Assembly (NCBI GenBank): GCA_963835575.1
Contig: CAWIGG010000004.1
Coordinates: 869,672 to 933,671 of the forward strand
Source: an uncultured Spirochaetota bacterium
GTDB taxonomy: Bacteria; Spirochaetota; Brevinematia; Brevinematales; JAOACQ01
Length of the DNA stretch: 64,000 nucleotides
Direction: 5' to 3'
Below are positions 13,786 to 42,467 of the stretch, one piece after another. Positions within the stretch are counted from its first letter, which is position 1. The number at the start of each line of letters is the position of its first letter. The position numbers and the translations under genes were made by a program. The notes beneath the pieces are model-generated. The model saw only the letters and a list, made by a program, of their open reading frames with translations. It was not told where the DNA came from and did not search any database.

Positions 13786-13797
13786 ACACATTTAAAC

Positions 13798-14381
13798 GAC
13801 CCCAATTCGGCAGGATCAGCAGGATTTGTCAGGATTCTTGGAATAAAATTTCACAGGAAGACGGGAAGGCACGAAGGGAAATTAACGTCACTTTATTTTT
13901 AATTGGAAATGTTCATCATAATTTCTTTGTGGTAATATCCGATGGTGCACACGGATGATGCAGGTAATGTGGATTTGCACGGATCTTGGGATTGGGTACG
14001 ACTGAGGTAACCACAGATTTCACAGATTACATAGACAGGGAGCGAGGAATCGGAGGAAATTGTTTTGGAGTTGCGCACTGTGAACAAGGTATAGCCTCCT
14101 CCTAAAATCCCTATTCACAAATGTCCTATATCATATCCGGCTTCGAATAAAACTTTACAGGCATCGTTAAGTAATACTAAATCCTATAAATCCGCCTTCA
14201 TCCATGCAATCTGTGTGAAATGGGGTCGCTCATTAAGCTTTAATAAAACAAAAAGGACATCTCAATCAAAATCTCTCATCTACCGGGCGTAGCCCCCGAT
14301 TTCAGTCCTTTCCGTGAAATTCTGTGGTAGACTTCGCGTTTTCCTGTATAATTCTAAAAAAAATCCTGATTTATTGGGGTC
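13798..14381. repeat. Gene-less stack of nested inverted repeat modules built from 9/10-bp phased units
   Basis: Forward modules: A GACCCCAATTCGGCAGGAT.. (13798), B ACAGGAAGACGGGAAG (13853), C GTAATATCCGAT..CACACGGAT.. (13932), D AACCACAGATTTCACAGAT (14009). Reverse partners: 14171-14227, 14311-14328 (D'), 14332-14347 (B'), 14361-14381 (A'). Confidence 0.75.
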
Positions 14382-14494
14382 AATACTTAAAAGAATTTTA
14401 AAGGACAGAACTTTTCTTAATTTATTTTTGAATTTAAATTCAATCATTTGTATAATTTATACAATTGATTTATATTTTTATCAGGAATAGTATA

Positions 14495-21048: not shown

Positions 21049-21813
21049 ATGTTCGAATCCGTAAAATCAAGGATCAGCCATGGTTTTCCATACATTCCGA
21101 ATATCCGGAAAGCGGGTGTGGACGAAAAATTCCGCGGTCTTCCATCATTAAAGAAAAATGTCTGTAAAGACTGCTCATCGTGCGTCGAGGTTTGCCCGAC
21201 CGGGGCCATCTCGCTTAAATCGTTCAGGATAGACATCGGCAAGTGCATCTTCTGCGGCGACTGTGAGAGGGAGTGTTCAAAAGGCGCTGTAAATTTTACA
21301 CCATTTCATAAAACGGCAGCCTCATCGCGGGAAGCCCTTATCGTTTCGGAAGGGGATTCTTCCGCCGATTTCGAGAAGAAGGCAATACAGATAGACGAAA
21401 AGATACGAAGTATCTTCGGAAGGTCGCTGAAGCTCCGGCAGGTCTCGGCCGGCGGATGCAGCGCCTGCGAGATGGAGCTCGGCGCCTGCTCGAACGTCAA
21501 TTTCGACATGGGGCGCTTCGGCATCGAGTTTACCGCCTCCCCCCGCCATGCGGACGGGATCGTCATAACCGGGCCTGTAACATTTAATATGGCTGAAGCC
21601 CTGGAAGACGCCCTGAGCGCAGTGCCGGAACCGAAGCTCATCATCGCCGTGGGAAGCTGCGCGATCAGCGGCGGGATTTTTCAGGACTCGCCGGCGATGA
21701 AGAGGGATTTTTTCGAGAAGCATAAAGTGGATTTGTATGTGCCGGGATGTCCCATCCATCCTTTGACGTTTATCAACGGACTGCTGGATTTTACAAGGGG
21801 CAAAAGGGATTAG
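21049..21813 (+). CDS. Fused 2[4Fe-4S] ferredoxin and NuoB-like small subunit (EhrS, HyfH/HyfI-like)
   Basis: CKDCSSCVEVCP and CIFCGDCEREC, then GGCSACEME, SPRHAD, AVGSCA, YVPGCP. Confidence 0.88.
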   Translation: MFESVKSRISHGFPYIPNIRKAGVDEKFRGLPSLKKNVCKDCSSCVEVCPTGAISLKSFRIDIGKCIFCGDCERECSKGAVNFTPFHKTAASSREALIVSEGDSSADFEKKAIQIDEKIRSIFGRSLKLRQVSAGGCSACEMELGACSNVNFDMGRFGIEFTASPRHADGIVITGPVTFNMAEALEDALSAVPEPKLIIAVGSCAISGGIFQDSPAMKRDFFEKHKVDLYVPGCPIHPLTFINGLLDFTRGKRD

Positions 21814-21949
21814 CCACGAGGCACGGAGGATGGGCTACGCCTGACAGATAAAAGCTCTATACTATGAATTCCTTTCTGTTTTATTAAAAATCATGATTCA
21901 ATCCCAATTTCACACAGATTGCACGGATGAGGCGGATTGACGCGGATTA
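21813..21949 (+). repeat. Forward-oriented phased repeat modules at the left boundary of the kinase insert
   Basis: GCCACGAGGCACGGAGG, TGGGCTACGCCTGACAGATAA, and CACACAGAT TGCACGGAT GAGGCGGAT TGACGCGGAT (near-identical to the reverse complement of 14191-14225). Confidence 0.75.
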
Positions 21950-22018
21950 TCTGTAGTAACTTATGTTTTGGCTTTTTCTAAAAAAACACTTTTTCAACAA
22001 TCTCGTAAAGCGGCGAAA

Positions 22019-23545
22019 TTACGCTAAAAGTAGACGTAACCACTTCTCTATTTCAGCATTTTCAAGTTTTTTCGTTTCTACTTCTCGTACATGCATAGCA
22101 ACTCTAGAGAGATTATATTCATTATAGAATTCGTTACTATCCAAAGCGTAATTTTCTTTATGCGGTCCACGAACTAAAGCAGAATCTTTAAATATAGCAA
22201 AATACCATTCTCCATAAATATCATCTTGCTTTTCTTTCCTTAAAATCAAATTCACGGAATATTCGTTCTTTGTACCACTTAAATTCATCACCCCAACCAA
22301 AATTATCAGTTCTTTATCGAAAATTATACCTTCAGGTTCTTGCATAACCATTCCATATTTTTGTTTCTGAAATTCTATAGATCTTCTTCTTCGTTCATCT
22401 TTATAATTAGCAATCCCATTCACATCAAAAAATGATATATCTAATGCTCGTTCCATAAAAGATACTCTTAGACTTTCTAAATTATTTCTTTTCCCATTTT
22501 TTATGATGAATTTTGCATTTTCTAAGTTTTTGTTCACAGACTCAACTAGAGAACATACAGAATTAATCAATTCATTGATAGAATAATTTAAATATCGCAA
22601 CTTCTCCTCATGTTCATCTTGTCTCTTTGAGCTTTTTGCCAATTCCTCTTCTTTTTTTCTAATAAGCTGATGAGCCATACTAGCAATCGACGTAGCTATA
22701 TTCGCGTCTTTTGTATTACTTTTAAGAAAATCGTTAAGACTCTTAAGTATTTCTTCATCATTTTTATATCGCTGGTCCTTTTTTTTATTTGACATCTTTA
22801 TGATTATTTCTTTTAATTTTATAGGAACATCGCTTCTATTTGTACTTAAATCCGGTAACGGTTCAAATAGATGACACTGTCTATAATCTTGTGGTGTTGC
22901 ACAAATATAGGGTTTCTTAAGTGTTAAGATTTCAAAGAACATTATCCCCATTGAATAAATGTCCATTGAAATCGTATTTGCTTCTCCAAGCCATGCTTCA
23001 GGAGACATATAAGCATAAGTCCCTGCACCTTTAAAAGAGAATGTTTTTGTTGATTCATCTACATATTTTGACATTCCAAAATCGCAAACCTTAGCTGTGC
23101 CATCCACATCAATTAATATATTATTCGGCTTCAAGTCTCTATGTATCACTTTTTTATGAGCATATTCCAATCCTTTCAATATATCTGTAAAAATACTATA
23201 GCATTTATCCAAAGGCAACATAACCTTCTGCGTTTTTAGAAATGCATCTAGGCTGCCATTAGGCATATATTTCATTACCAAATAAAAATAATCACCCGCA
23301 TCACTTTCTCCAGAATAGTAAGTACTTATTATATTAGCATGTGCTAGTGTGGCGGATATATCTATTTCTCTTTTTAAGGTTTGTCTATATTGCTCATCAA
23401 AGATAGGGGCAATTTTTATTGCCACTTTCGTTTTATTTATTAAATCATCAGATAGATAGACGTCGCCAAATCCACCTGCATTAATTTTTGTACCAAGCTC
23501 ATACTGTTCACTGCTTTCAGGACCTCGTAATTTATTCATGACCAC
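22019..23545 (-). CDS. Hanks-type Ser/Thr protein kinase with an unknown C-terminal region, AT-rich
   Basis: GGFGDVY, VAIK, HRDLKPNN, DFG, GTYAYMSPE, DIYSMG; no TM segment; visibly lower GC than its flanks. Confidence 0.92.
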   Translation of the reverse strand: MVMNKLRGPESSEQYELGTKINAGGFGDVYLSDDLINKTKVAIKIAPIFDEQYRQTLKREIDISATLAHANIISTYYSGESDAGDYFYLVMKYMPNGSLDAFLKTQKVMLPLDKCYSIFTDILKGLEYAHKKVIHRDLKPNNILIDVDGTAKVCDFGMSKYVDESTKTFSFKGAGTYAYMSPEAWLGEANTISMDIYSMGIMFFEILTLKKPYICATPQDYRQCHLFEPLPDLSTNRSDVPIKLKEIIIKMSNKKKDQRYKNDEEILKSLNDFLKSNTKDANIATSIASMAHQLIRKKEEELAKSSKRQDEHEEKLRYLNYSINELINSVCSLVESVNKNLENAKFIIKNGKRNNLESLRVSFMERALDISFFDVNGIANYKDERRRRSIEFQKQKYGMVMQEPEGIIFDKELIILVGVMNLSGTKNEYSVNLILRKEKQDDIYGEWYFAIFKDSALVRGPHKENYALDSNEFYNEYNLSRVAMHVREVETKKLENAEIEKWLRLLLA

Positions 23546-23624
23546 TTTTACTCCCTCATATGAAATTTGTATTACGTCTTACTTCATATAAGCAAATTTA
23601 ATATATGTGAATTTTCTCCCCTTC

Positions 23625-23653
23625 ATCTTAATAAAGCCCAATTCACCTGTCAA
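23625..23653 (-). promoter_or_regulatory. Shared accessory-gene promoter, copy 1
   Basis: Minus strand TTGACA-ggtgaattgggctttat-TAAGAT-gaa. Confidence 0.7.
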
Positions 23654-23679
23654 GACCGATATCGGGACGCAATAATCTG

Positions 23680-23834
23680 ATCCGTGAAAATCCGCATCAT
23701 CCGCCTAATCCGCGTGCCGAATCGGATCAGTACAATAAGGCGGCAATTATTATAGAATTACAATAGCTTAACAAAGGCATTGAAATGAAATAATTCTCTG
23801 TGCCCCTGTGTCTCGATAGCGAATTCTCTGTGGC
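23680..23834 (-). repeat. Reverse-oriented phased repeat modules at the right boundary of the kinase insert
   Basis: Reverse complement reads ATCCGATTCGG CACGCGGAT TAGGCGGAT GATGCGGAT TTTCACGGAT. Outer module CTCTGTGCCCCTGTGTCTCG..CTCTGTGGC. Confidence 0.75.
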
Positions 23835-23850
23835 GGTTTATCCTGTAATT

Positions 23851-24507
23851 CTATTTATCCTTCCATAGTGTCTCGCCCTTTATGAGCCATGAAACGCCGA
23901 AAGCCCATAGAGTGAATGATTCCAGAATCAAATCGGGTTTGATAATTGAAATTATTGAAGTCTTTAAAAAGAATTCATATATTCCAATCAAGATTATAGA
24001 AATGACTATTATGATACCGCAGGCTCTATATATTCTATTTCTCACTATTTTTTGACCGGTCATTATTTTGGCGTTGCTTTTTGTAAACAGGAAGAAGGAT
24101 ATAAAAGCCAGTATCCCGAAGAATAAGCCGGCGCATATAAAATGAATTACCCCGGAAATATGATCGCTGATCTGAAATGTCCCGACTATTACGGCCTGAT
24201 CACTTCCTGTAAATGTCGGAAACAGAGTCACTCCAAGAGCGCAGGCCCCGCAGATTGTCGCTATAATATCGTCAAAATTACCGTAACCTTTGTAAGAGAT
24301 TAAAAACAGGGCCAATCCGCATGTAATGCCGATAAAAACATCCCTCAAATTCGTATAATAATAACTGCTGATCGATTCCTGGATCGCTTTTCCCGCGATC
24401 AAACCGCCGATGAATAAAATAAACGGCAGGATAATCCCTAAAATACCGAGAATCCGGCGCATTGTTAAATACGATATTGTCAGACAATTGCTCTTTGGAA
24501 CAGGCAT
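23851..24507 (-). CDS. Membrane protein (DUF998-like)
   Basis: About six TM segments; ISYLTMRRILG, SISSYYYT, IHFICAGLFF, FGVSWLIKG. Confidence 0.7.
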   Translation of the reverse strand: MPVPKSNCLTISYLTMRRILGILGIILPFILFIGGLIAGKAIQESISSYYYTNLRDVFIGITCGLALFLISYKGYGNFDDIIATICGACALGVTLFPTFTGSDQAVIVGTFQISDHISGVIHFICAGLFFGILAFISFFLFTKSNAKIMTGQKIVRNRIYRACGIIIVISIILIGIYEFFLKTSIISIIKPDLILESFTLWAFGVSWLIKGETLWKDK

Positions 24508-24644
24508 TGTTTCCTCCTTAAAGTTTTAGGTATTACTTCTGATATAATGCAAATTACAGAAATTTAGAGATTGCCGGGCGATTTTGCCAAAAGTGTACTC
24601 GCCGCAGCCGGCAACTTGATTTTAGACGTTGTAAAGAAAAAGTG

Positions 24645-25109
24645 TTATTCAACAACATTAAATCCCAATTTTGCATATAATTTCATCGCCGGTTCATTCC
24701 CTTCGAGTATTTTTAATGTAACTTCCATACTTCCTTTTGAAAGTATTTCATTAACTGCATATTTTGTTAATTTTGAGCCATAACCTTTTCGCTGAAATTT
24801 CCTATCAATACTGAGAGATTGAATATAATTATTAAGAAATAGTATAGACCCTATTAAATAATTGCCTATATCAAAGAGGAAATAAAATGTATCCTTATTT
24901 TTATTAAAAAATGATTTTATCTCACTTAATTCTGATTCGGATGATTCGTTTATCCTGTGAGGAGTTATATTGTTTTTTCCCCGTAATTCGTAAAATAAGT
25001 CTGATTCCAAATCAAGTTCCATTTTAAAATAATCATCACAATATTTTACCGGATTAATTTCCGGATCTTCATATATGGGTCCTTTATAAACTAATTTTAA
25101 TTCATTCAT
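24645..25109 (-). CDS. GNAT-family N-acetyltransferase
   Basis: FQRKGYGSKL acetyl-CoA motif; NEPAMKLYAKLGF. Confidence 0.85.
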   Translation of the reverse strand: MNELKLVYKGPIYEDPEINPVKYCDDYFKMELDLESDLFYELRGKNNITPHRINESSESELSEIKSFFNKNKDTFYFLFDIGNYLIGSILFLNNYIQSLSIDRKFQRKGYGSKLTKYAVNEILSKGSMEVTLKILEGNEPAMKLYAKLGFNVVE

Positions 25110-25123
25110 TTGTCAGCCGCTTT

Positions 25124-25462
25124 TCAGAGGGCGTCTTCCCCGGTCTGGCCCGTCCTGATGCGGATGGCTTCCTCAATAGTGCTGATAAATATCTTCCCGT
25201 CGCCATGCTGGCCGGAATGGCAGATCGTCCGTATTTTTTCCACGATCTTTTCAACAAGCGCCTCGCCGGTGACTATTTCCAGCTTGGTTTTCGGGACCAG
25301 CGAAACATCGCCCTCGGCGAACTCGATGATGCTCTGGTGCCCGCGCTGGTGGCCGAAGCCTCCTGCCTCGATAACGGTAATTCCCTGGACCCCCAGGTCT
25401 GAAAGGGCCTTCTGGATTTCAGCCAGTTTGGAACGGCGGATAATCACCTCTATTTTCTTCAT
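25124..25462 (-). CDS. P-II family signal protein (GlnB/GlnK-like) with an atypical T-loop
   Basis: MKKIEVII, GFGHQRG, PKTKLEIV, GDGKIFI, IRIRTG; 112 aa from the ATG at 25462, which follows a GGAGG. Confidence 0.88.
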   Translation of the reverse strand: MKKIEVIIRRSKLAEIQKALSDLGVQGITVIEAGGFGHQRGHQSIIEFAEGDVSLVPKTKLEIVTGEALVEKIVEKIRTICHSGQHGDGKIFISTIEEAIRIRTGQTGEDAL

Positions 25463-25695
25463 GAAGGGGCCTCCTGAACTGTCAATTATAAAAAATATAA
25501 CCATATCTTACTGATGATATAAAAAAATTACAATAAAATAAAAAATGCCGTATTTCCCGCGAAGATTTTCAATACAAAATTTCAACGGGATATTATTTCA
25601 CAGTCATATTATTTCAATTTATATTTCTGATCCGGAAAACTTTCAGATAAAACTGAAAATATTTCATTCAGGCCCCCATCCTTAATACGTAATGT

Positions 25696-25724
25696 TTGAT
25701 TTTTCCGCCGTTCCGTGCTAAAAT
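25696..25724 (+). promoter_or_regulatory. Sigma70-type promoter (extended -10) for the ehr operon
   Basis: TTGATT-N17-TAAAAT with TG just upstream of the -10. Confidence 0.55.
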
Positions 25725-25765
25725 TTTGAATTAGTTTTTTAGAGGGGCAGGTCATAGAGTAGAGT

Positions 25766-26440
25766 ATGGATCTGAAATTAAAAGATGTCTGCGGCCTTCT
25801 GGGCGTCGAAGAAAAAAAGCTTGTCGGCTGGATTAAAGAGAATAAAATACCGGCTTATGAAATCCAGCATCAATATTTTTTCAACAAAGCCGAAATTCAC
25901 GAGTGGATCCTTAAAAACAACTGGCCGGTCTCAAAAAGCGCGCTGGACCTGGCTTTGACGAACGAGCCGGTCTCGCTCGTTTCCCTTCTGGACAAAGGCG
26001 GGATTTTTTATCAAATCCCGGGCAGGGATGCCAGGTCGGTTATAAAGAATTCCGTAAAAAACATTCCTCTCCCGCCCGGACAGACCCAGGATACGGTTAT
26101 TTCGACGCTGCTGGAAAGGGAGGAGATGATGCCGACGGCGGTCGGTAAGGGGATTGCCATTCCCCATCCGCGGAACCCGATCGTTTCCGATATTGAAAAC
26201 GAGAGCGTGTCCCTCTGCTTTTTAAAAAATAAAATAGATTTCGGGGCGCTGGACGGACTGCCTATAACGGCGCTCTTTATTGTCCTCAGCGCGAATGCCA
26301 GAAGGCACCTGGAGATTTTATCTAAAATATCCTATCTCTGCCAGAATAATGATTTCAGCGGACTGATGGAAAAACAGGCGTCCAGGGATGCGCTTCTGGC
26401 TTATATTGAAGGAAAAGAAAAGGATTGGATAAAAAGGTAA
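25766..26440 (+). CDS. Excisionase-type HTH fused to a PTS EIIA (Ntr/Fru-type) domain
   Basis: N-terminal LKDVCGLLGV..WIKENKIPA..YFFNKAEI; LLEREE.PTAVGKGIAIPHPR (phospho-His), DFGALDG, HLEILS. Confidence 0.85.
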   Translation: MDLKLKDVCGLLGVEEKKLVGWIKENKIPAYEIQHQYFFNKAEIHEWILKNNWPVSKSALDLALTNEPVSLVSLLDKGGIFYQIPGRDARSVIKNSVKNIPLPPGQTQDTVISTLLEREEMMPTAVGKGIAIPHPRNPIVSDIENESVSLCFLKNKIDFGALDGLPITALFIVLSANARRHLEILSKISYLCQNNDFSGLMEKQASRDALLAYIEGKEKDWIKR

Positions 26441-32898: not shown

Positions 32899-32910
32899 AG
32901 GAAATAATTA

Positions 32911-33180
32911 ACAGGAAGGCATCCCTTGGCTGTGCTCGGGACAGGCTCCGGCGGGAAGGGAAGAATATAAACGTATCTTCTATTATAATATTTAAACTAA
33001 TGTAAAAGAAGCCTGATTGTAATATCCGATTTTTCACACGGATGACGCGGATTTTAAAGGATTTAGTTTTACGCTGAGCAGCTTTTTTATTGATGATATC
33101 TGATAGAGTCTTATATTAACCACGAAGTTCGCGAAGAACACGAAGAGGGTTGGAAAGGTGGGCTGCGCCCGGTGGATAAG
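32911..33180 (+). repeat. Forward-oriented modules B, C, D-like and F at the left boundary of the defence block
   Basis: ACAGGAAGGC[REP insert]GCGGGAAG; GTAATATCCGAT..CACACGGAT GACGCGGAT TTTAAAGGAT; AACCACGAAG TTCGCGAAG AACACGAAG; TGGGCTGCGCCCGGTGGATAA. B, C and D are in the same order as at 13853-14036. Confidence 0.72.
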
Positions 33181-33224
33181 GCTTTGAGAACGACTGAATA
33201 TCATAGAATGACACTGATGTTCAC

Positions 33225-34934
33225 TTATATCTTAAAATATTTTTTCTCTGCTTTTTTAGCTATTTTTAAAATAGAATCCAACTTTTCACTTACTTCCTTG
33301 TCAATTTCCTCGGGTTTTGCCATACTAACCAATTTGTAATAACGGCTTTTATCCATTAAAATCACAGAATTAATCTTTTTATAAAAATCCCTGAATACTT
33401 TATCGAGAAAATCATCACTCATTTTTGTCGTATTCCACCATTCGTTCATTTTATCTTTTTTTGCCACACCAGGAATATAATCATCGATTATATTTTTAAT
33501 TATTGACGGATAAGTCTGAGTAAATAATTCTTTTCCATATTCTTCAACAATAAAACGCTCAATAACAACCGGCAATGGCAAATAATTTTCTATTTCGTTT
33601 TTATCCCACATTAACATTTTGAAATATTCATTACTCTGAAGTTTAGCCGGAATTTTATCAAATATGGCGATGCCTGATAAATCAGGCATTGCTTCTTTTA
33701 ACCCGTAAAAATGATTTTCGGCTGATGACGGCCGGTTTGAATCAACAGTTCTGACGAATGCTTCTTCAAGGTACTTTAAAACGGGATGTCCTAATAATTT
33801 GGCAAAGGCTTGAAGTATCAAATGATCGGTCGTCCCTTCGAGATAAAGGACCCATTTCTTTTGTTCTGCAAGAACGTACTGATCAAAACCAATACTATTC
33901 AGTGATTTTACGAGCTGCTGAGTCTTATTCACACGGTGGGGATCACCGATAAACCCTATTATTGTATCCTTTTCCGCAGCCTCGTTAAGCACTGCTTCCG
34001 AGTGTGTGGCAATTATTAATTGTGATTTCTGATTCTTAATGGTTTCTGAAAGTGTGTTATAAATCTCTTTTTGCCTGATAACTTCAAGATGGGCATCCGG
34101 TTCATCAAGTAAAAGAATTGTGTTTTCATTGCTGTAAATATAAGAAAATAACAGCAGGATTTGCTGAAAACCCCTTCCGGAGTTGGAAAGAGCCATATTT
34201 TTCTTGGAATCTTCGCGATAAGTCAACAACAGCTTTCCCGTACCGGCATCATAAACCGGATCATCTAAATCAACAAGGAAAAACCTTTTTATGAGACTTT
34301 TTAATTCCTTCCATTTTCCATTACTGCGCTGATAGACATTCCAGCATAGGTTTCTCAGGACTTCCGCGGTCCTTCCCTCGCCGATCCTGCCCTGAATCGA
34401 TCCGGGTTCAAGTTTGTCTTCCTCGCTCGCAAGTCCCGACATTGGAGGAAGAAAACCAACGCGTTCGTTTATAACTTCTTCCGGAAAAGGCAGAGGTTTC
34501 CCATTTTCATCACCCAGTATCCGGCAATAAATAGATTCGGGATTTGCATAATCAAATTCAAAACCCAGAGACCATTTAGTGTTTGAAGTAAAGCCTTCGG
34601 CTGTAATTTTTATCCTGATATTCTCCGTACCTCTTTTACCTTCTTTTTTTATAAAACTTTTTCTGACATTGAGATCGCTCCATAATTGAAGCGCGGAGGG
34701 TAAAGGCATAGAAAGGAGTTCTTTACGGTTTATTGTTATACCTGTTCTCTGCTTCGCTTTGGTTGTACGGGAATGTTCATACCACCTTCTCATCCCGATA
34801 CTCCAGAGAGAAATAGCCTGCAATGCTGTGGTTTTACCGGAATTATTCGGTCCTATAAAAGCGACAACAGGAGTCAGGTCAATTTCAACTTTTTCCAGTT
34901 TTTTAAAATTTTCAATAAAAAGTCTGGTTAACAT
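33225..34934 (-). CDS. ABC/AAA_15-type ATPase with a C-terminal TOPRIM-like region (OLD/GajA-like, putative defence protein)
   Basis: IENFK, GPNNSGKT, SGRGFQQ signature, LLLDEPDAHL, IATHS, then LYLEGTTD...IFD...EIENYL. Confidence 0.75.
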   Translation of the reverse strand: MLTRLFIENFKKLEKVEIDLTPVVAFIGPNNSGKTTALQAISLWSIGMRRWYEHSRTTKAKQRTGITINRKELLSMPLPSALQLWSDLNVRKSFIKKEGKRGTENIRIKITAEGFTSNTKWSLGFEFDYANPESIYCRILGDENGKPLPFPEEVINERVGFLPPMSGLASEEDKLEPGSIQGRIGEGRTAEVLRNLCWNVYQRSNGKWKELKSLIKRFFLVDLDDPVYDAGTGKLLLTYREDSKKNMALSNSGRGFQQILLLFSYIYSNENTILLLDEPDAHLEVIRQKEIYNTLSETIKNQKSQLIIATHSEAVLNEAAEKDTIIGFIGDPHRVNKTQQLVKSLNSIGFDQYVLAEQKKWVLYLEGTTDHLILQAFAKLLGHPVLKYLEEAFVRTVDSNRPSSAENHFYGLKEAMPDLSGIAIFDKIPAKLQSNEYFKMLMWDKNEIENYLPLPVVIERFIVEEYGKELFTQTYPSIIKNIIDDYIPGVAKKDKMNEWWNTTKMSDDFLDKVFRDFYKKINSVILMDKSRYYKLVSMAKPEEIDKEVSEKLDSILKIAKKAEKKYFKI

Positions 34935-35010
34935 AAATTGCCCCTTGGATTTTTTGATTAAGATTTATTTTAACATAAATCTTATTATTTGTCTTTTCAA
35001 ATTCTAATGT

Positions 35011-38000
35011 TTATTCCATTATCTCATCTATTTTCCCCATCACCCGTTCAGTCTCCACAAGAGCGGCAATTATCCGCTGGTAGTGTAAGATTTCGTCAAA
35101 TGTTAAAGTGCGCCCTTTCCTGTCCTTCAGCCACTTCTGCGCGGGCTGGTAGCCGCCGATGTAGAACTCCCAGCTGATTCGGGAACTCCTCCGAAGAATT
35201 GCTTTTTATTGATCCATACTTTGCCATAATTTTTAACCTTAGATTTTACCTGTTCTTTCTCAAAAATCACTTTTTCCACTTCATTATTCCCCGTTTCGGG
35301 ATAAGCGGTAATTAAATTTTCAAGCAGCGGAGATTCCATCAGATGTAATTTCCTCAATACGGCCCCTTTTTCCGCAAGTTTAAAAAATATTTTAGCGCTT
35401 TCAGGATACGGTATTCGCGGAAAGTCTATTTTTAAGAATTCCTTATATTTTTCCCGGTAGGAAGGCGAATGGAGTACGGCATAAATATAGTCGAGAATGT
35501 CCAGCGGGGTAAAGTATTTCTTCGCTCCTTTAGTTTTTTGAATAGAATCATTGTCATCTTCTTCCTTGAATTCCAGCCCAATTTTCCCGGCGATAGCATT
35601 CACGATTTCCATGTTTAGGTTAGGACGGCGATGTTCCGAAAAGCGACGATTCGAATCGTCGCTTTTCGCTTCGAAATCAAATTCCCCATCGTCGTCGTAG
35701 AGGTAGAGAGGAAATATTTTACAATTATCAAATGGCGAAACGCCATCCTTATCAACAATTTTATTTGAAATGAAATAATTAGTAACATTACCTCTTCTTG
35801 AATTTCTAATTGCTAATAGACATATATTTTCTTTTAACATATTATTCATTAATGGGCTTCGTGGATAGGCCATAAAACCCTTACTTTTTCCAGTAAAATA
35901 AGTATACCTATCATCAAAAGGATGGTATAGTACATTATTTTCGACCCCATTATTATTCTTTATATCATCCATAGCCCATTTAATAGACCAATCTCTTCCA
36001 TCTTCACCCAAATTATACTTATATCTTATCTCCTCTGTTGACAATTGTTTTAAATCAATAATAATTTTTAATAATTCTTCCTTAGAAAAAGAATAAACTA
36101 GATTATCCCTTTTAGTTTGTATTCCAGTATTATTTGAAATAAATATTGATTCAATATTAAGTCCTTTATTATATTCTTCATCCAATCTAAAATCTTTTGG
36201 TACAAAAAAACAATACGGTTCAACAGGGTCAAGCTTCAACCATTTCAAAGATAAAATATTACTATTCCAGAGTTTATCATACTTAACCTCCCGTTCACCA
36301 AATACATCAAAATGAAAAACAGAAGATAATTCTTTTTTCTTTCCACCATTCTTTACAAAAATATTGATTGATACCCCTTGCTGGATATCGAAAACATTTT
36401 CATCCTTGCTTCCATCCGGTGAAGTTTCTTTTTTCTTTGAATTTCCATGGAGATCATAAATATAAATTTTATCGAAAGTTTCCATCAGGTGCTTGCGCAT
36501 CTGCCGGTGTGTAATGCCGTCGATATAGGAATTGTTTGTGATCATTGCCACAATACCCTGGCCGTTTTTCTCGATAAAATGCTCGGCATAGCGGATAAAT
36601 TTTATATAATCGTCGTCAAGATTCAGTTTCTTCTCATTCAATCCTTCCTTATAGCACTTTATCTGGGAACGTATCCAATCGCCGGTATTGCTGGAACTGA
36701 CGCTGTACGGAGGATTGCCGACCACGACCATGACGGGCATATCCTCCTTGACCTTATTCGCTTCCTTCGCCTCAAAGGAAAGCCACTGCGCGAAAGTGGT
36801 GTTGATTGTGGCTCCCGGCTTTTCCAGGCTGTTGGTCAGGTAAATTCCCAGGCGGGGGGATCGGTCGGTAAAAGTGTAGCCGGTTTCCTGGAAAATGAAT
36901 TCCATCTTGAGGTGGCACATCGCGTAGCTTGCCATCAGGATTTCGAAGCCATGCAGGCGGGGAAGAAGATGCTCGTCCACATAGCCGTTCCAGACGCCTT
37001 TCTGGGATTCGAAGCTTTTATAAATCCGCCTGATAATTTCAGCGAGGAAAGTCCCTGTGCCGGCAGCCGGGTCTAAAATCTGCACCCGGTGGGATTCAAT
37101 CTTAAATAATCCCCCCGCGATGTTTTCATGTTCCACCTCGACTTTTGAAGTATCAGCCAAGCCCATCTTAAGGCCGAATTCGGATTTCAGAATATCGTCC
37201 ACGGCGCGTACAATAAAACTCACAACAGGTTCGGGGGTATAATAAACCCCGCGCGATTTCCGCTGGGCGGGATCGTACTCGGCAAGGAATGTCTCATAAA
37301 AATGGATTACCGGGTCATGACGGGCGGTCGCGTCTCCAAAGTCTGCCATAATCTTATTCAAGTCACACGCGAGGAATAGATCGGCCAGCGCGTCTACAAT
37401 CCAGTCGATGCTGTTGTCCAGTTCGGGTCCGGCCACATAAGAGAAAAAATTCCTGAGAAATAGATTGGATTTCGGAACGAGGAATAAGGCTTCCTGACGG
37501 GAAAAAGTTTCCATTGTTTTATCATGAATCCTCGCGGCGAATAGGCCGTATGCTACCGTCTGAGAGTAAATATCGGCAAATTGATGTTCGGTCATATCAT
37601 GAATCAGTACTCTCTTAAATGACTGGTACTGGCTGTAAAGGGTATTGGACGAATCACCGGAGTGATCCGGTTTTTGAAGCGTTAACGCATTATAAATAAT
37701 ATCACGCATCAATCGCGCCTTGTCTGCCATCATCCGGGCGAGCTTTTCCGCGGATGTAATAGTCTGGCCCCTGTAATCACAGAAATCTCGGATCATATCC
37801 TCAAAAACAGGCCAGTCTTTTTCACAGGGTTTAAGTTTGCCGCCTTCGATTTCAGCGATTCGAGCCGTCATTTCTTTTTGCCCTGCGCGGAAAAGCCGGA
37901 ATTCCAGGTAATCTGTCAGGATAAGATTGTCAAGGCTTTCAAGGTATTTTTTAAGCTGATCGTCTTTCTCACTTTTATCAAGCGAAATACCAATATCTTT

Positions 38001-38207
38001 TGTTTCAACATAACCGACTGGTATTTCTTTCCGGGTGATAATCAAATCTGGCGCGCCGCATTCCTGGCGTCTGGGTTCATTTGTTACTTTTATTTCAGGT
38101 ATAATGCTTTCAATCAGCCCTTCAAGATCGGAACAATAACTGTGCTCGGTAGCAATTCCATCATTAAAAAGCCTTTTTATATTTGAAAAATAATCAGCTA
38201 TCGTCAT
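35011..38207 (-). CDS. Single-chain restriction-modification enzyme (type IIG/ISP-like without helicase; N6-adenine MTase), 1-nt frameshift near 35171
   Basis: N-terminal PDLII..VETKD nuclease motif, GVYYTPEPVV, DPAAGTGTF, GNPPY, IYAVLHSPSYR. The conserved tail WEFYIGGYQPAQKWLKDRKGR continues in another frame to a stop at 35011. Confidence 0.85.
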
Positions 38208-38407
38208 AATATACCTCAAATAATTATAATTACAAATTAATATATTATAACAAATTAAAGATTTAAATCAAAACTTTCATTTGTATTTTTATTTCTTTAT
38301 AACCATTGCACTCCGTTTTCTTCTCTGAAAGTCCGGGAAAGCCTTTTGATTTTTCCTGATGCTCACTTTGCTGAAGCCAACGGAGCGGCCAGCCAGTTCT
38401 CCGTTCT

Positions 38408-38571
38408 TCCGTTCCCGAGGCCATTTTCCTCCTGGCCATAATCTGAACATAAATCAACTCAATTTAAAGTCGTGTTATCTGTTAACATTATAATAGAAGA
38501 GAGGCAAATGTTTTTGACATAGCCTGCCCCCGATCCAATCGAGAGGATGTCAAAACCGATGCATAAAGCCA
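38408..38571. repeat. Spacer module X, copy 1
   Basis: TCCGTTCCCGAGGCCATTTTCCTC(C/T)TGGCCATAATCTGAACAT (42 of 43 identical), ATTATAATAGAAGAGAGG and GCATAAAGCCA all recur in the same order at 39818-39957. Confidence 0.8.
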
Positions 38572-38628
38572 TCGGCACATAAAGGAATTTTGTTTATTAT
38601 TTTTTTCTCATCATCGTTCCCCGGCGGG

Positions 38629-38948
38629 GGCAGAGAGTGAACTTTTCTGGATGCGTCACTTCATTAATTATGGAATTGTAATACAGAGCATCGCGCAGAG
38701 GGCTTAGTTTTGCCCGTGACCGGCCGGCTTGAACGCGCGGAATGTCCGAGCATACCCATTGTCCATAAATTCGAAATCAAGACAGACTAATAAAGAATAT
38801 TTGATAAATTACTTTCAATGGGTGTGCGAGTTCCGAGCGTGCGGCCGGGAGCGGATGCAAAACTAGCACTCGAAGCGAATGCGTTCTTTAGTCTGAAATT
38901 ATGAGAAAATGATTAAATATCAGCGTCCAGAAAAGTTCACTATCTACC
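38629..38948. mobile_element. MITE-like ~320-bp foldback element
   Basis: Terminal IR AGAGAGTGAACTTTTCTGGATGC / GCGTCCAGAAAAGTTCACTATCT. Internal nested pairs: TAGTTTTGC/GCAAAACTA, CCGGCCG/CGGCCGG, ACGCGCGGAA/TTCCGAGCGT, GCATACCCATTG/CAATGGGTGTGC. Confidence 0.6.
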
Positions 38949-39010
38949 TTTGCCTATCGCTGGGGGACAATCTGCAGTGTGGCACAGCGCCAGCAGTGCC
39001 TCCTTTTCCC

Positions 39011-39118
39011 TTCTTTTCGAAAAGAAAGAAATATCGTAATTCCCCCGGCAGCCTGTCGGAATAATAATCCCCAATAGCTTAATAAAAAGAAAAGACGTTG
39101 ACCCTTCAGCCAGAAGGC
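39011..39118. repeat. Spacer module Y, copy 1
   Basis: TTCTTTTCGAAAAGAAAGAAATATCGTAATTCCCCCGGCAG...AAAAAGAAAAGACGTTGA recurs at 40138-40243, with a degenerate copy at 44542-44619. Confidence 0.8.
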
Positions 39119-39208
39119 GATGCCCTTTTGACCTTGCAAAAGAAAGTGAACAAAATCCCCCGGCAATCGTTGCCGGTCTGCGCAGCCGCATTGCACCTTT
39201 TTATTATC

Positions 39209-39424
39209 TTAAATATTATCTTTAAACTCGGATAGAGTGATATTGGCCTGTCTGAGAATACTGCGGAAAGTACCTTCAGGAATTTCTTTCTTATCCATCG
39301 GTAATATGACAATGTTCCCTTTTCCATTCTTATATTTTGCGTGGGAACCTTTTTGAGAAATAAAAGAAAATCCCAATCTTTCCAGGACTGATGAGATTAC
39401 TCTTGATGAGTAAAGCTTAGACAT
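39209..39424 (-). CDS. hicA: HicA-family toxin
   Basis: 71 aa; LERLGF..QKGSH..Y, EIPEGTFRSILRQA. Confidence 0.88.
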   Translation of the reverse strand: MSKLYSSRVISSVLERLGFSFISQKGSHAKYKNGKGNIVILPMDKKEIPEGTFRSILRQANITLSEFKDNI

Positions 39425-39623
39425 GGACCTTTTCCCTTCCGATGAAAACCTGGTCTACTTCAGGGAATTCCTTATCCTCATTTTCAAAATAAAGTTCAAC
39501 AGCCTCTTTAAGATTAGTAACAGCCTCGTCTGAATTATTTCCAAAAGAGGAAACATCCACATTCAAACACTGTGAAACATAATATTGGCCTTCATGCCAG
39601 ACAACATATTCGATTTCTTTCAT
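39417..39623 (-). CDS. hicB: Short HicB-family antitoxin without a DNA-binding domain
   Basis: YVSQCLNVDVSSFGNNSDEAVTNLKEAVELYFE; overlaps the hicA start. Confidence 0.85.
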   Translation of the reverse strand: MKEIEYVVWHEGQYYVSQCLNVDVSSFGNNSDEAVTNLKEAVELYFENEDKEFPEVDQVFIGREKVHV

Positions 39624-39817
39624 AATAGAGCCTCTCTTTAAAAAAAGAATAAAGGTAATTAAGCGTAAAATCAAGTTTTAAAGTATTCGTTTATTTTTGT
39701 ATAACAGACAGGAATGTCTGTTATACCGGATTAACCGGCGCCAATTCCCATCTTTAAAAAGAATGTTTTATCATAAATAAAATGAATAAGAATTAAAAAA
39801 AGCTGTTCGGCAAATTG

Positions 39818-39957
39818 TCCGTTCCCGAGGCCATTTTCCTCTTGGCCATAATCTGAACATCAAATATCTCGATATAAAGTTGTGGCATCCGCTATTATAA
39901 TAGAAGAGAGGAAGCACATGCTTGCGGCAGGGACGCCGCAACCGCCGCATAAAGCCA
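39818..39957. repeat. Spacer module X, copy 2
   Basis: Direct repeat of 38408-38571. Confidence 0.8.
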
Positions 39958-40127
39958 CGCCCAGCACCACTTTGATTGCCTGTCCTCAAAGTGGTGCTGG
40001 GCAAGGATAGCGATTTAAGGCGGCTATTATAGCAATGAACTGCTTATTAAAAAGCCGGATAACACACCTCCATACGGTCCGATAGCTTCGTATGAAAATG
40101 GCCTCGACCTGTTTTCTTTCTTTAGCG

Positions 40128-40243
40128 CGATATTTCTTTCTTTTCGAAAAGAAAGAAATATCGTAATTCCCCCGGCAGTCTGTCGGACTAATAATCTCCA
40201 ATAGTTTAGTAAAAAGAAAAGACGTTGATCCTTAACCAGAGGC
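40128..40243. repeat. Spacer module Y, copy 2, beginning with a 36-bp perfect palindrome
   Basis: CGATATTTCTTTCTTTTC|GAAAAGAAAGAAATATCG (40128-40163), then a direct repeat of module Y. Confidence 0.85.
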
Positions 40244-40283: not shown

Positions 40284-41402
40284 TTACGCTAGTAAAAGCT
40301 TGATAGGCAGCGCCCCGTTCAACAACGCGATTTCTTTGTTTGCTTTAAGCGAAAGCAAATGGACCGGCGCATCCGCCGGAACGAGCAGCGCGATGCGCCA
40401 CGCCGAGAACCGCTCATGGATGACCCTGCCTATGTCTTTGAACAATGCGCTGATTCCGCTGCCCCCGATGCGTTCGCCGTAGGGCAGATTGGCGATCAGG
40501 AGACCGCCCGGCGCGGGAGGCGTCCACTCCTGGAAAGGCTTTACTGAAAATGCGATATACTTTTCAACACGGGCGCGCAGCGCGGAGGCGCGAGCCACGT
40601 CGACATACTTGGCGTTGATGTCCGAAGCATAGATCGGCGCCGGCAGTTCGGACTTTTTAGCCGCGCGCAATTGATCGGAAACGCGGCGCCACAAAGGGCG
40701 GTCGAAACCGGCCAGGTGCTCCAGGGCAAAATCGTCTTTGCCCCGGTGAATGAGCGGCGCTTTATTCAGAGCGATATATGCCGCTTCGATGATAATGGTG
40801 CCGGAGCCGCACATCGGATCAAGGAGCGGTTCATTGCCGGTGTAGCCTGCCAGAAGCAGGATCGAAGCGGCCAGTGTCTCTTTCAAAACGGCCGGATGCC
40901 CGCCTGTACGCCAGCCGCGTTTATGAAGGGCGCGGCCCGCCGTGTCGATGCCGAGCGTGCAGGAACCGTTCCGGACGAATACAACGATGGTAATGGGCTC
41001 GTCGGCGTCGGGATCGAACCGGGGAGCGGACTTTTCAAACGCGCTATTTTGTATCGATTGAACGATGGATGTAATAACCGCTTCCTCGCCCAACGCAATA
41101 GCTTGTTGATCGGTGAGGGCCGGCGCGACCGTGAAAGGCTTATGCGAGCGCAGCCATTCCGGCCAGACGATCTTCTGCAGTTCCATCCTCAGATGTGTTA
41201 TGTCAGGAGTGGCGAATTCCGCGACCACGCGCTGAATTCTGCTTGCTGTACGCAGTAACAAATGGGCGCGGTACGCGGTCTCCAGATCAGTGTCGAACGC
41301 TACGCCGCGGTGCAGTATATTCAGGTCTTTTATTCCAAGCCCGGCAAGTTCGGAAGCGAGCACATCGACAGTCTCGTGCGGGCATGTGGCAATCCATCTC
41401 AT
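40284..41402 (-). CDS. THUMP-domain class I SAM RNA methyltransferase (RlmL-like), copy 1
   Basis: LRTASRI, DTAGRALHKRGWR, LKETLAA, LLDPMCGSGTIIIEAA, NLPYGERI. Confidence 0.88.
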   Translation of the reverse strand: MRWIATCPHETVDVLASELAGLGIKDLNILHRGVAFDTDLETAYRAHLLLRTASRIQRVVAEFATPDITHLRMELQKIVWPEWLRSHKPFTVAPALTDQQAIALGEEAVITSIVQSIQNSAFEKSAPRFDPDADEPITIVVFVRNGSCTLGIDTAGRALHKRGWRTGGHPAVLKETLAASILLLAGYTGNEPLLDPMCGSGTIIIEAAYIALNKAPLIHRGKDDFALEHLAGFDRPLWRRVSDQLRAAKKSELPAPIYASDINAKYVDVARASALRARVEKYIAFSVKPFQEWTPPAPGGLLIANLPYGERIGGSGISALFKDIGRVIHERFSAWRIALLVPADAPVHLLSLKANKEIALLNGALPIKLLLA

Positions 41403-41535
41403 AAAGTTTGAGACCTCAACCGATTAGATTTTGACAGGTCCGGCGATAGAGCGAAATTATGTTTAACGTCCTCGATAAGCGAAGCTGCCGAAGTTTTTAC
41501 TAAAGCCGAGGTAAGTGAACAACTTTGTGACTCTA

Positions 41536-41811
41536 TTACACTATCTCAATTTTTACTTTTTTTCCTAATGCCTTTGCGATACGTTCCAGGGATGATAATT
41601 TTAAATCTTCGGCATGGTTTTCCATTCTTGATATGGCGCTTTTTGTCGTGTGAATCCTGCCAGCTAAATCTTCCTGGGTTAATCCGTTTTTGATCCTCAT
41701 TTCTTTCAACATCAATCCGATTTTAAAATCATTGTAATTTTCATCATAGTTTTCAGCGAAAGAAGGATCGGATTTTTTCCTTTTATCGACGTATTTTTTT
41801 AAATCACTCAT
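41536..41811 (-). CDS. XRE-family HTH antitoxin (HigA-like)
   Basis: RIKNGLTQEDLAGRIHTTKSAISRMEN; overlaps the toxin stop. Confidence 0.85.
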   Translation of the reverse strand: MSDLKKYVDKRKKSDPSFAENYDENYNDFKIGLMLKEMRIKNGLTQEDLAGRIHTTKSAISRMENHAEDLKLSSLERIAKALGKKVKIEIV

Positions 41812-42158
41812 ATATTCCTCCGTAAATAATCGGCTTTGTATTTTTCAGCCAGTTTGATTTCATTTTCAGGTGTTTTTTGGGTCTTTTTGGTAAAACCATT
41901 AGTTAATATAAACAGTGCGTTTTTATGAAAGAATCCTAATAATCTGTAAGTATCACTTCCCTGTTGAATCCTGACTTCGTAGATATTGTCAGTATTCACT
42001 AATTTTTTAAAATAGTTTTGCGGAATTTGATCAAAGTCTTCAATAATCTGCAATACCCATGTAATTTTCCGGGCTGTTTTTCCCGGTAAAGAATCAAGAT
42101 ATTCTTCAACCGGACATTTTCCATCCTCGGTTTTATAAAAGTTAATGACTCTTTTCAT
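41808..42158 (-). CDS. RelE/ParE (HigB, Gp49-like) toxin
   Basis: FYKTEDGKCPVEEYL, IYEVRI, YRLLGF, LTNGFTKKTQKTPENEI. Confidence 0.85.
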   Translation of the reverse strand: MKRVINFYKTEDGKCPVEEYLDSLPGKTARKITWVLQIIEDFDQIPQNYFKKLVNTDNIYEVRIQQGSDTYRLLGFFHKNALFILTNGFTKKTQKTPENEIKLAEKYKADYLRRNI

Positions 42159-42162
42159 ATTA

Positions 42163-42192
42163 TATGTTAGCATACATGTGAACATTAGTCAA
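42163..42192 (-). promoter_or_regulatory. Toxin-antitoxin promoter with overlapping palindromic operator
   Basis: Minus strand TTGACT-N17-TAACAT, 5 nt before the ATG; imperfect palindrome ATGTT-ca-CATGTATG-ct-AACAT. Confidence 0.6.
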
Positions 42193-42283
42193 TAGCATTT
42201 ATAGCAATCTTGTATCAGGTTATCGTTTAACTAGCGACATTAATGAGTTATTGTTTTATGGGTTTTAAGATTGACCAAAAGAT

Positions 42284-42440
42284 AATCCTGTAAATCCTGT
42301 GTTATCCTATAAATCCTGCCGAATTGGGGTCAGTATAATTAAGATATTCTAATTTTCAATTTCCGGCAGGATATGAAGAAATCATCTGATCTGTGCGAAT
42401 CCGCATAATCTGTGTCATCCGCGTGCAGAATCGGATATTA
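42284..42440 (-). repeat. Reverse-oriented modules A' and C'
   Basis: The reverse complement of 42313-42331 is GACCCCAATTCGGCAGGAT, identical to 13798-13816. The reverse complement of 42388-42440 is TAATATCCGATTCTG CACGCGGAT GACACAGAT TATGCGGAT TCGCACAGAT. Confidence 0.8.
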
Positions 42441-42467
42441 TATAAAAGAGGTGTTAATAATAATCTA

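Follow-up and report, generated by a model that had tools for sequence, protein, structure and literature searches.

A compositionally foreign, single-gene Hanks-type kinase among lineage-specific intergenic repeats

The kinase locus and its promoter

The DNA described here is a stretch of 64,000 nt of contig CAWIGG010000004.1 (hereafter the window; GC content 43.9%), and its subject is a gene for a soluble Hanks-type protein kinase, which is encoded on the minus strand between two repeat modules whose phased arrays face it from either side. The gene is intact, carries its own promoter and has been acquired horizontally; its family is rare and fixed in architecture, and has a C-terminal domain private to it. 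The first-pass annotation of this DNA, made from the sequence alone, had described an AT-rich kinase packaged between two nested inverted pairs of repeats. The strings that it quoted are all found at the positions given for them, and the kinase is indeed the single open reading frame (ORF) of at least 60 amino acids (aa) between the inner arrays, where 1.7 kb are occupied by a promoter block, a leader, the kinase gene and a 63-nt 3' spacer (Table 1). The coding sequence has a GC content of 0.32 and a GC content at third codon positions (GC3) of 0.24, compared to a GC3 of 0.47-0.72 in the 30 native-looking genes of the window that serve as a yardstick, and GC, at 0.43-0.48 in the modules, drops to 0.31-0.32 within the kinase segment. 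The protein has no hydrophobic segment, its highest 19-residue hydropathy mean being 1.37. The picture of an insert coding for an AT-rich, soluble kinase holds in these respects, but the low-GC patch exceeds the kinase: it extends over ~3.3 kb (~21956-25109), from the ehrS-like gene to the P-II gene, and contains three minus-strand ORFs, for the kinase, a DUF998-like protein and a GNAT acetyltransferase.

The ehrS-like ORF, at whose stop the insert had been proposed to begin, does end at 21813. The kinase also lies inside a hydrogenase/Ehr region, with genes for NuoE-like and NuoF-like proteins and a group A6 [FeFe]-hydrogenase upstream of the patch, and a helix-turn-helix (HTH)-EIIA gene together with five complex-I-like membrane and NuoCD-type genes downstream of it. 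The further claim that the kinase interrupts this region is only partly apt, since the interval from the ehrS-like gene to ehrA is shared by the GNAT gene, the DUF998-like membrane ORF and the native-looking P-II and HTH-EIIA genes. The DUF998-like ORF may be either native or foreign. A plus-strand ORF at 25110-25514, the longest there (134 aa, no family), was rejected as spurious, as it overlies the minus-strand P-II gene. No tRNA genes were found, and a NiCo (nickel/cobalt) riboswitch is present at 596-674 (gathering score, 38.8 bits).

The promoter assigned to the kinase by the first-pass annotation is well founded. Its hexamers, TTGACA (23653-23648) and TAAGAT (23630-23625), separated by 17 nt, give 10 of 12 matches and constitute the best sigma-70-like site of their strand in 21700-25800. 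The surrounding block, TTGACAG...CTTTATTAAGATGAA..GG.A (~45-60 nt), recurs at 44383-44439 and 45159-45215, in each case upstream of an unrelated AT-rich minus-strand ORF, and a 14-mer of the block has three exact copies, at 23622, 44394 and 45170. The kinase promoter is itself, by these copies, a repeated element of this genome's accessory genes. The two other genes that bear the block code for a 211-aa protein (GC3 0.17) and a 154-aa membrane-like protein, neither of which matches a Pfam family. A short palindrome adjacent to the -35 hexamer looks operator-like and may be termed a putative operator. No intrinsic terminator was found after the kinase stop.

Table 1. Coordinates of the kinase locus, its flanks and related features (positions in the window unless an accession is given)
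Feature	Position	Strand	Details
ehrS-like gene (4Fe-4S ferredoxin fused to NuoB-type 20-kDa subunit), native left flank	21049..21813	+	Stop codon 21811-21813; Pfam Oxidored_q6 7.7e-28 and Fer4 families; GC3 0.64
Left composite module	21813..21955	+	CACGAGG/CACGGAG heptamers 21815-21828; GGGCTACGCC..GATAA box 21825-21860; AT spacer; anchor CCCAATTTCACAC; four phased 9-10-nt units 21911-21950 toward kinase; GC 0.43
3' spacer after kinase stop	21956..22018	-	GC 0.32
Kinase coding sequence	22019..23545	-	508 aa from GTG 23545; database form 506 aa from ATG 23539 (P0002)
C-terminal alpha/beta domain	22025..22507	-	P0002 residues 345-505
Single long helix (~58 residues), linker from kinase to C-terminal domain	22529..22702	-	P0002 residues 280-337; AlphaFold2 models
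Hanks-type protein kinase domain	22766..23506	-	Pfam Pkinase 2.4e-47, residues 14-260; full catalytic set
Predicted leader (5' untranslated region)	23546..23624	-	GAGGGAG upstream of start codons; transcription start inferred
Promoter block TTGACAG..CTTTATTAAGATGAA	23610..23655	-	-35 23648-23653; -10 23625-23630
10-nt palindrome CCGATATCGG	23656..23665	.	Between R array and -35 hexamer
Right module (R type)	23670..23736	-	Anchor ATCCGAT, then CACGCGGAT, GGCGGAT, TGCGGAT, CACGGAT units (arrays 23680-23716) toward kinase; nhmmer E 1.8e-19; pattern 23699-23727; GC 0.48
CACAGAG-type heptamers (right "outer" element)	23796..23834	-	CACRRAG pair within 32 nt; the window has just two such pairs vs 0.18 in shuffles
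DUF998-like multi-pass membrane ORF	23851..24507	-	218 aa; GC3 0.44; homologues at most 56% identical, some with PF06197
GNAT acetyltransferase gene, strongly AT-rich	24645..25109	-	Pfam Acetyltransf_1 3.4e-12; GC3 0.20; no adjoining module
P-II (GlnB-type) gene, native right edge of low-GC patch	25124..25462	-	Pfam P-II 6e-27; GC3 0.70
"Empty" convergent pair	13930..14239	.	R(+) 13930-13994, L(-) 14178-14239; ~183 nt between; no ORF
R module, CACGAAG heptamers and GGGCTGCGCC box	33016..33185	+	Past ehrL stop; faces AT-rich AAA_15 ATPase and type IIG restriction genes
R module, then CCCCAATTC/CAGGAT module	42292..42443	-	Past stop of rlmL-like copy 2; faces AT-rich higBA pair
Distant kinase-family member	NZ_CP139430.1 8953-10449	opposite to neighbours	Mobilizable 206-kb Providencia rettgeri plasmid

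A rare kinase family with a private C-terminal domain

The catalytic domain scores 162 bits against PF00069 (cut-off 31.7) and exhibits the motifs GGFGDV at position 22, VAIK at 39, HRDLKPNN at 133, DFG at 153 and SPE at 179. The residues G22, G23, K42, E58, H133-R134-D135, K137, N140, D153-F154-G155, P180-E181 and R257 are invariant across 50 family members, and the same holds in the C-terminal part of the family alignment for N336, G416, N430 and W445. Kinase domains are the only matches of the protein in a profile search of the PDB (4eqm, E 1.4e-71), and the best Foldseek match of the domain, which has the bilobal fold, is Stk1/PknB of S. aureus (E 2e-21, 34% identity, template-modelling (TM) score 0.85-0.89 on the target). 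The full-length AlphaFold2 model, with a predicted local distance difference test (pLDDT) of 90.0 and a predicted TM score (pTM) of 0.74, consists of the kinase domain, one ~58-residue helix and an alpha/beta domain. The invariant catalytic residues, the family length of 504-520 aa and the model confidence (pLDDT 90) mark the gene as intact and under selection.

The C-terminal part had been called uncharacterised, and the searches bear this out. Modelled alone, its 231 residues reach a pLDDT of 96.8, and Foldseek finds no similar fold at E<=0.001 in the PDB or BFVD, the two collections relative to which its novelty holds (best E values 0.12 and 0.07, TM at most 0.25). The ESM Atlas yielded no usable neighbour for the domain. 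It matches no Pfam family and none in PADLOC (0 families for the C-terminal 231 aa), no consistent C-terminal Pfam family emerges over 57 aligned members, and tblastn of the C-terminal half against phages and plasmids gives no match at E<=1e-3.

The family that shares this domain is small. An exhaustive phmmer search with the C-terminal part among 1.84 billion representatives retrieves 51 proteins: 30 of 501-524 aa with a C-terminal match, 18 shorter ones which are likely fragments, and three long ones with short repeated stretches. A word-indexed search shows 27 full-length clusters at 35-46% identity and none closer, and nearly all of the family clusters that were looked up have a single member. 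The organism names met are Methylovulum miyakonense and, for a more distant protein of 29% identity, a planctomycete metagenome-assembled genome (MAG). The missing close homologue of the kinase says little about vertical conservation, because no close relative of the host is sequenced: among 5.8 billion proteins, the closest non-self homologue of the ehrS-like protein is 73% identical, and others, from several phyla, are 57-66% identical.

A second genomic context is provided by a plasmid. In a tblastn search of plasmids with the whole protein, one record covers 96% of the query, namely Providencia rettgeri NZ_CP139430.1 (28% identity, E 4e-47), and the C-terminal 219 residues of its protein align with the family profile (hhalign probability 97.5%, E 6.8e-12). 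The plasmid gene is alone on its strand relative to all 32 listed neighbours, which are mostly small hypothetical genes, in addition to a cytosine methyltransferase gene, dinG and parB. Its GC content is 0.35-0.41 in a background of 0.52-0.58, and its flanks contain no arrays and no notable repeats. A GNAT/DUF1778 pair is located 6 kb from it. In phages, the whole protein gives kinase-domain matches only, in 27 records, none of which reaches 80% coverage. On this comparison, the kinase family behaves as a self-contained single gene which moves horizontally in two unrelated hosts, and the modules of the Brevinematales-type locus are not part of what moves, since the Providencia member is without them.

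A role of the kinase in phage defence is plausible by analogy. In the PADLOC library, mad6 (1.2e-68) and many models of PD-T4-6 (near 1e-60) match the kinase, but each of them over residues ~5-315 only, and the PD-T4-6 matches end at profile positions ~280-330 in models of 292-547 positions. The Stk2 model (PDLC02375) matches at 1.2e-20, more weakly than the generic kinase models. As a control, the first 300 residues of the two giant signalling kinases of the window match PD-T4-6 at 7e-64 and 6e-54, and the Stk2 model matches a control signalling kinase at 1.5e-21. The PADLOC search suggested by the first-pass annotation consequently yields no specific defence match: the matches are non-specific, because unrelated control kinases match equally well and the C-terminal half does not match. 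The NCBIfam model of MAD6 (NF047741) gives 163.8 bits against a cut-off of 460, and the best NCBIfam match, PknB_PASTA_kin (NF033483), 221.6 bits against 450, the protein having neither a PASTA family nor a transmembrane segment. No mad genes adjoin the kinase, and a MAD1-like match occurs only for the EIIA protein, in its HTH (34.7 bits, cut-off 80). By these model matches, the kinase is to be assigned neither to PD-T4-6, MAD6 or Stk2 nor to the PASTA kinases, and by the content of the window its gene does not qualify as an integron cassette.

The controls themselves are encoded at 47398-57558, as two adjacent giant proteins of 1641 and 1728 aa with kinase, AAA_16, TPR and GAF domains, ending in a GGDEF domain or a SpoIIE phosphatase. 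Genes of a defence-like character are found at 33225-38219, directly after ehrL and with an R module on that side. These AT-rich genes code for an AAA_15/OLD-like ATPase (PADLOC AriA, GajA and Old, 1e-13 to 5e-25) and a type IIG/ISP restriction-modification enzyme (PADLOC 9e-296).

The case for a single-gene conflict or defence kinase is indirect and draws on the rarity of the family, its foreign composition in two hosts, the lone opposite-strand position on the plasmid, the fixed architecture and the precedent of Stk2; we regard it as a serious possibility, somewhat short of an even chance. In the excerpted report on Stk2, activation by a phage product, broad phosphorylation and cell death are described (PMC6532042), and the excerpted report on KKP of Pf prophages describes Ser/Thr kinases which mediate defence from a mobile element (PMC11341870). 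By analogy, the C-terminal domain would keep the kinase inactive until a cue derived from an invader is sensed. The activation loop would then be autophosphorylated and many cellular or phage proteins phosphorylated, whereby the infected cell would be arrested, as described for Stk2. The protein may, on the other hand, be an acquired but ordinary signalling kinase, in which a C-terminal ligand- or partner-binding domain regulates host physiology and which has no immune function. The catalytic domain is closest to the housekeeping kinases Stk1/PknB/StkP, the window encodes two large signalling kinases, and both this proximity and the lack of a specific library match, of an adjacent defence gene and of a phage or plasmid match for the C-terminal domain alone are in keeping with such a function. 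The scarcity of the family, with its nearly all single-member clusters, fits it poorly, as do the foreign composition in two unrelated hosts, and the isolated position on the opposite strand of a mobilizable plasmid; moreover, neither locus has a partner phosphatase, an FHA protein or a neighbour that is conserved. An ordinary signalling role is in our view almost as likely as a defensive one, though likewise short of an even chance, and the probability left by these two roles is reserved for other selfish or unknown ones.

Repeat modules and AT-rich DNA

The inner arrays that flank the kinase are real, as first described: no inverted repeat of the region is longer than the one that they form, at 37 nt and 76% complementarity, and each arm is composed of four YRGAT cores at a spacing of 8-11 nt. 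Arrays of at least three such units number four in the window, whereas 100 shuffles contain 0.1 on average and 2 at most. The common design is an ATCCG-N9/10-CGGAT or CCCAAT anchor, followed by three to four CGGAT/CAGAT units phased at one helical turn. In the R type, TAATATCCGATT is followed after 3-5 nt by CACRCGGATKA and further GGAT units. Four R copies are present in the window (13930, 23736, 33016 and 42443), with a mean column identity of ~71%, and a degenerate R pattern picks out these four but occurs 0 times in 100 shuffles. The copy to the right of the kinase lies 115 nt past the DUF998-like stop, in the orientation of that gene. The left module, ~145 nt in length, is homologous to 14345-14180 of the minus strand (33 nt at 94%, E 2.8e-6, and 19 nt at 95%), and nhmmer recovers its L part (21897-21955, E 1e-15) and its box (21825-21860) with profiles built partly from this very copy.

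The profile census comprises four R, two L, three CCCCAAT/CAGGAT and three box copies, i.e., 12 copies of four types in five intergenic regions, and the scan of the window finds no further copies, and none in genes, at E<1e-3. The profiles were built from these same copies, such that the census shows absence elsewhere rather than independent discovery. The modules are arranged variably at 13786-14464, 32899-33224 and 42186-42467. The bare heptamer GCGGATT is not enriched in the window (19 versus 16.4 expected), enrichment being confined to the phased clusters. For the modules, Rfam gives no family at gathering and only chance-level microRNA and long non-coding RNA rows at E<=1, and blastn against plasmids and phages gives no match. 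DnaA boxes, iteron-type centromeres and pac sites were considered for the arrays on grounds of resemblance and set aside. A weaker array of CACAGAT-type 9-mers at 59231-59434 (three units at 59354-59379, with CACAGATTACACCGATTTTACAGAT upstream), between folB and a short-chain dehydrogenase gene, is missed by the module profiles. Being intergenic and composed of several motif families in variable order and orientation at multiple loci, the modules are mosaic repeats of the kind known as bacterial interspersed mosaic elements (BIMEs) and Neisseria intergenic mosaic elements (NIMEs).

The kinase locus shares its convergent geometry with the pair at 13930-14239, which encloses ~183 nt instead of 1.7 kb. 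The picture of a filled and an empty pair is real; the "filled cassette" of the first-pass annotation, taken as a general rule, agrees less well with the data, in that only three of eight AT-rich blocks adjoin a module, the association test described below gives p=0.21 and no recombinase family is encoded among the 54 ORFs scanned. The two pairs could be viewed as a non-autonomous mobile element, such as a cargo-carrying transposon resembling a miniature inverted-repeat transposable element (MITE) or a small integrative element, with L and R as its ends, the kinase as a passenger and the 310-nt pair as the cargo-free form. Inward-facing arrays do bound the kinase segment, and likewise the empty pair, on either side. 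The phased repeats would be transposase or integrase arm sites, and several phased short repeats within element ends would resemble the transposase or arm sites of Tn7, Mu and lambda. Horizontal spread could also explain the core motif in three different genomes, and in the two others, described below, the array lies at the boundary of AT-rich DNA. An element of this type is nevertheless improbable in our view. The copies, ~71% alike and with arms 76% complementary, differ from recently transposed elements, and the empty pair has no special hairpin tendency as single-stranded DNA (z = +1.17). The Pfam scan of the 54 ORFs reveals no recombinase or integrase family, and the only transposase of the window, of the IS66 family (62021-63478, Pfam 5e-47, GC3 0.40), is about 38-40 kb from the kinase. 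Other module-flanked AT-rich blocks carry the module on one side only, the Providencia family member is without such ends, and no target-site duplication can be defined.

A related idea is that of an integron-like cassette array, in which attC-like modules would allow a dedicated recombinase encoded elsewhere to capture single AT-rich genes. It accords with the single-gene AT-rich units of the window and with four AT-rich minus-strand genes (the kinase, the AAA_15 gene and the ORFs at the two loci in other genomes) whose stop is followed, 47-165 nt downstream, by an array in antisense orientation. The window contains no integrase or attI-like arrangement, the kinase has its own promoter, unlike typical integron cassettes, no attC-like hairpin is formed, most AT-rich genes of the window are without modules, and the modules are mosaic and heterogeneous. 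These features render an integron-like system highly improbable.

The modules are polar with respect to base composition. Over 600 nt on each side, the anchor side is the GC-richer one in seven of eight modules (six in the window, two in other genomes) and equal in the eighth, the differences in GC between anchor and array sides being +0.09, 0, +0.23, +0.05, +0.18, +0.25, +0.22 and +0.23. Six of the eight lie 25-145 nt past the 3' end of a gene, in the same orientation as the gene. A scan of 185,579 species genomes (596 Gb), in which we estimate ~0.1-0.4 chance matches, found the R pattern at only two loci, L001 and L002, in the MAG "Spirochaetes bacterium GWF1_49_6" and a Brevinematales MAG, both of Brevinematales type, so the core motif is common to at least three genomes. 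Both arrays sit exactly at a switch from GC-rich to AT-rich DNA. At L001, GC is 0.53-0.58 before the array and 0.28-0.39 after it, where three AT-rich minus-strand ORFs are located; at L002, it is 0.46-0.52 before and 0.18-0.28 after, with a single 258-aa membrane ORF. The ORFs at the two loci match no PADLOC family and no convincing Pfam family. Together with one named homologue of the ehrS-like protein, these two matches suggest, as far as sequence comparison goes, a Brevinematales-type origin of the window.

The membrane ORF of L002 (2115-2908), which is AT-rich, follows a carB-like gene on its own strand and begins 16 nt past the stop of that gene, and the GNAT gene of the kinase patch likewise starts 14 nt past the P-II stop, an AT-rich gene following a GC-rich native one on the same strand. 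Starts at such distances suggest insertion immediately 3' of native genes, with possible co-transcription. Toxin-antitoxin genes of the window show another pattern. An rlmL-like methyltransferase gene is tandemly duplicated at 40284-43607 (96% amino-acid identity, 2184-nt spacing), and between the copies lie an AT-rich higB/higA pair and an R and CCCCAAT/CAGGAT module; the duplication looks as though it was created by, or along with, the toxin-antitoxin insertion. At 38408-40233, two more direct repeats enclose the gene of a HicA toxin together with small ORFs (39006-39106 resembles 40133-40233 at 92%, and 38408-38513 resembles 39818-39923 at 78%), and the HicA region and higBA have in common duplicate flanks around AT-rich toxin-antitoxin genes.

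Polarity and position bear on a further alternative, according to which the modules are ordinary lineage-specific intergenic repeats, akin to repetitive extragenic palindromic (REP) sequences, BIMEs or NIMEs or else 3'-end regulatory elements, with no causal link to the kinase, which would have landed in a long intergenic region between convergent genes where the repeats stood beforehand. The position of six of the eight modules past native 3' ends in gene orientation, the module-rich gap at 13786-14464 that holds no foreign gene, the statistics of association within the window (p=0.21) and the five of eight AT-rich blocks without a module are what this alternative predicts. It does not readily account for the array side facing AT-richer DNA in seven of eight modules and the reverse in none, for the placement of both pattern-only matches in other genomes exactly at GC-rich/AT-rich switches, or for the kinase segment filling precisely the interval that measures ~180 nt in the empty pair. 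We consider a purely coincidental association unlikely, although worth keeping in sight.

On balance, the explanation that we hold to be modestly probable is that a foreign kinase, perhaps a conflict kinase, was placed between pre-existing lineage-specific repeats. The repeats, as binding arrays for a protein or as landing sites prone to recombination, would predate the insertion, the empty pair at 13.9-14.2 kb being an example. A convergent pair would then have received the kinase segment, promoter included, by landing or recombination, and the repeats would not travel with the kinase. The conserved core, degenerate flanks, helical phasing and polarity would be less expected of an active transposon than of protein-binding arrays or old mosaic repeats. 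Several observations weigh against this explanation. The prior existence of the module pair would follow from a single paralogous empty pair and not from an orthologous empty site. A low-GC3 gene adjoins four of the five module-bearing gaps but also 10 of the 21 module-free gaps of at least 50 nt (Fisher p=0.21), and the blocks which adjoin a module are three of eight (the kinase, AAA_15 with type IIG, and higBA), the GNAT gene, the hicA region, the 211-aa and 154-aa ORFs and IS66 being without one. The AAA_15/type IIG block, the higBA block and L002 have no module at their second boundary. The outer pair claimed by the first-pass annotation fails as an inverted repeat: the 16-mer at 21813 reaches at best 10/16 against 23728-23860, a value equalled by 555 of 5000 random 133-nt windows, and this left string is the start of the module that recurs at 14345-14180, not half of a nested inverted pair. 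As to a conflict function, the libraries give no specific defence support, the C-terminus has the negative phage and plasmid result given above, and neither of the genes next to the kinase (DUF998-like and GNAT) is one of defence, those of the window that look defence-like being 10 kb away.

What is established is an ordinary pattern, that of a compositionally foreign accessory gene among lineage-specific intergenic repeats. A general cassette system is not shown; the idea of a cassette is a sensible lead, as yet unproven, for and against which there is evidence. A bolder proposal is that, in Brevinematales-type bacteria, the modules mark, and perhaps create, junctions for foreign AT-rich genes. 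They would serve as recognition arrays for a hitherto undescribed system of integration, of capture or of boundary setting (by silencing or insulation), which handles promoter-bearing single-gene units; the kinase would be one cargo among others and would found a new family of single-gene sensor-kinase immunity. To this we attach low credence. As a hypothesis, the polar phased repeat at native/foreign junctions gives a starting point for testing the ways in which acquired genes are placed or insulated in a spirochaete lineage that has been little studied. Should the kinase prove defensive, it would add a rare single-gene kinase family to the known immune systems, with a confidently modelled sensor domain unmatched in the PDB and BFVD and with members on a Brevinematales-type chromosome and, in a distant host, on a Providencia plasmid.

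Comparison with known systems

The literature on Brevinematales and PD-T4-6, at the level of the listed titles and the opening lines of abstracts, describes neither these repeats nor this kinase family, from which no absence from print is claimed, and a search combining Hanks-type, anti-phage and kinase found nothing. The protein has its closest known counterparts in the single-gene Hanks-kinase defence candidates Stk2 and PD-T4-6, the modules in mosaic intergenic repeats such as NIMEs and BIMEs.

Stk2 of Staphylococcus, a single-gene abortive-infection Ser/Thr kinase, is likewise soluble, eukaryote-like and stand-alone, has a C-terminal half that is not a kinase, and is sporadically distributed; the mechanism considered above is modelled on it (PMC6532042). 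The C-terminal domains of the two proteins are, as far as tested, unrelated. PD-T4-6, a PADLOC family of single-gene kinase defence candidates, and MAD6 of the MADS system share the Hanks kinase domain (E 1e-60 to 1e-68), but their matches stop at about residue 315 and no MADS operon adjoins the present gene. The PASTA kinases Stk1/PknB/StkP have the closest solved catalytic domains, yet they differ from this kinase, which is devoid of a transmembrane segment and of PASTA repeats. KKP, the kinase-kinase-phosphatase module of Pf prophages, comprises three genes including a phosphatase, whereas the present kinase gene stands alone and has no phosphatase gene in its vicinity.

Integron attC cassettes and MITEs also present a gene bounded by imperfect inverted repeats and a short, cargo-free version elsewhere. 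The locus described here differs from them in having no integrase in the window, its own promoter, no hairpin, copies only ~71% alike and no definable target duplication. The modules themselves find their nearest parallel in the intergenic mosaics of other bacteria. The E. coli BIMEs are such mosaics of short repeat families. In Neisseria, the excerpted account of NIMEs and minimal mobile elements describes intergenic arrays, assembled from several short repeat families in varying combinations and associated with variable genes, as well as small foreign blocks between conserved flanks (PMC1797815). The present modules resemble these arrays in their intergenic position and combinatorial make-up, and are distinguished from NIMEs and BIMEs by other sequences, by phased 9-10-nt direct units after an anchor and by their polarity toward AT-rich DNA.

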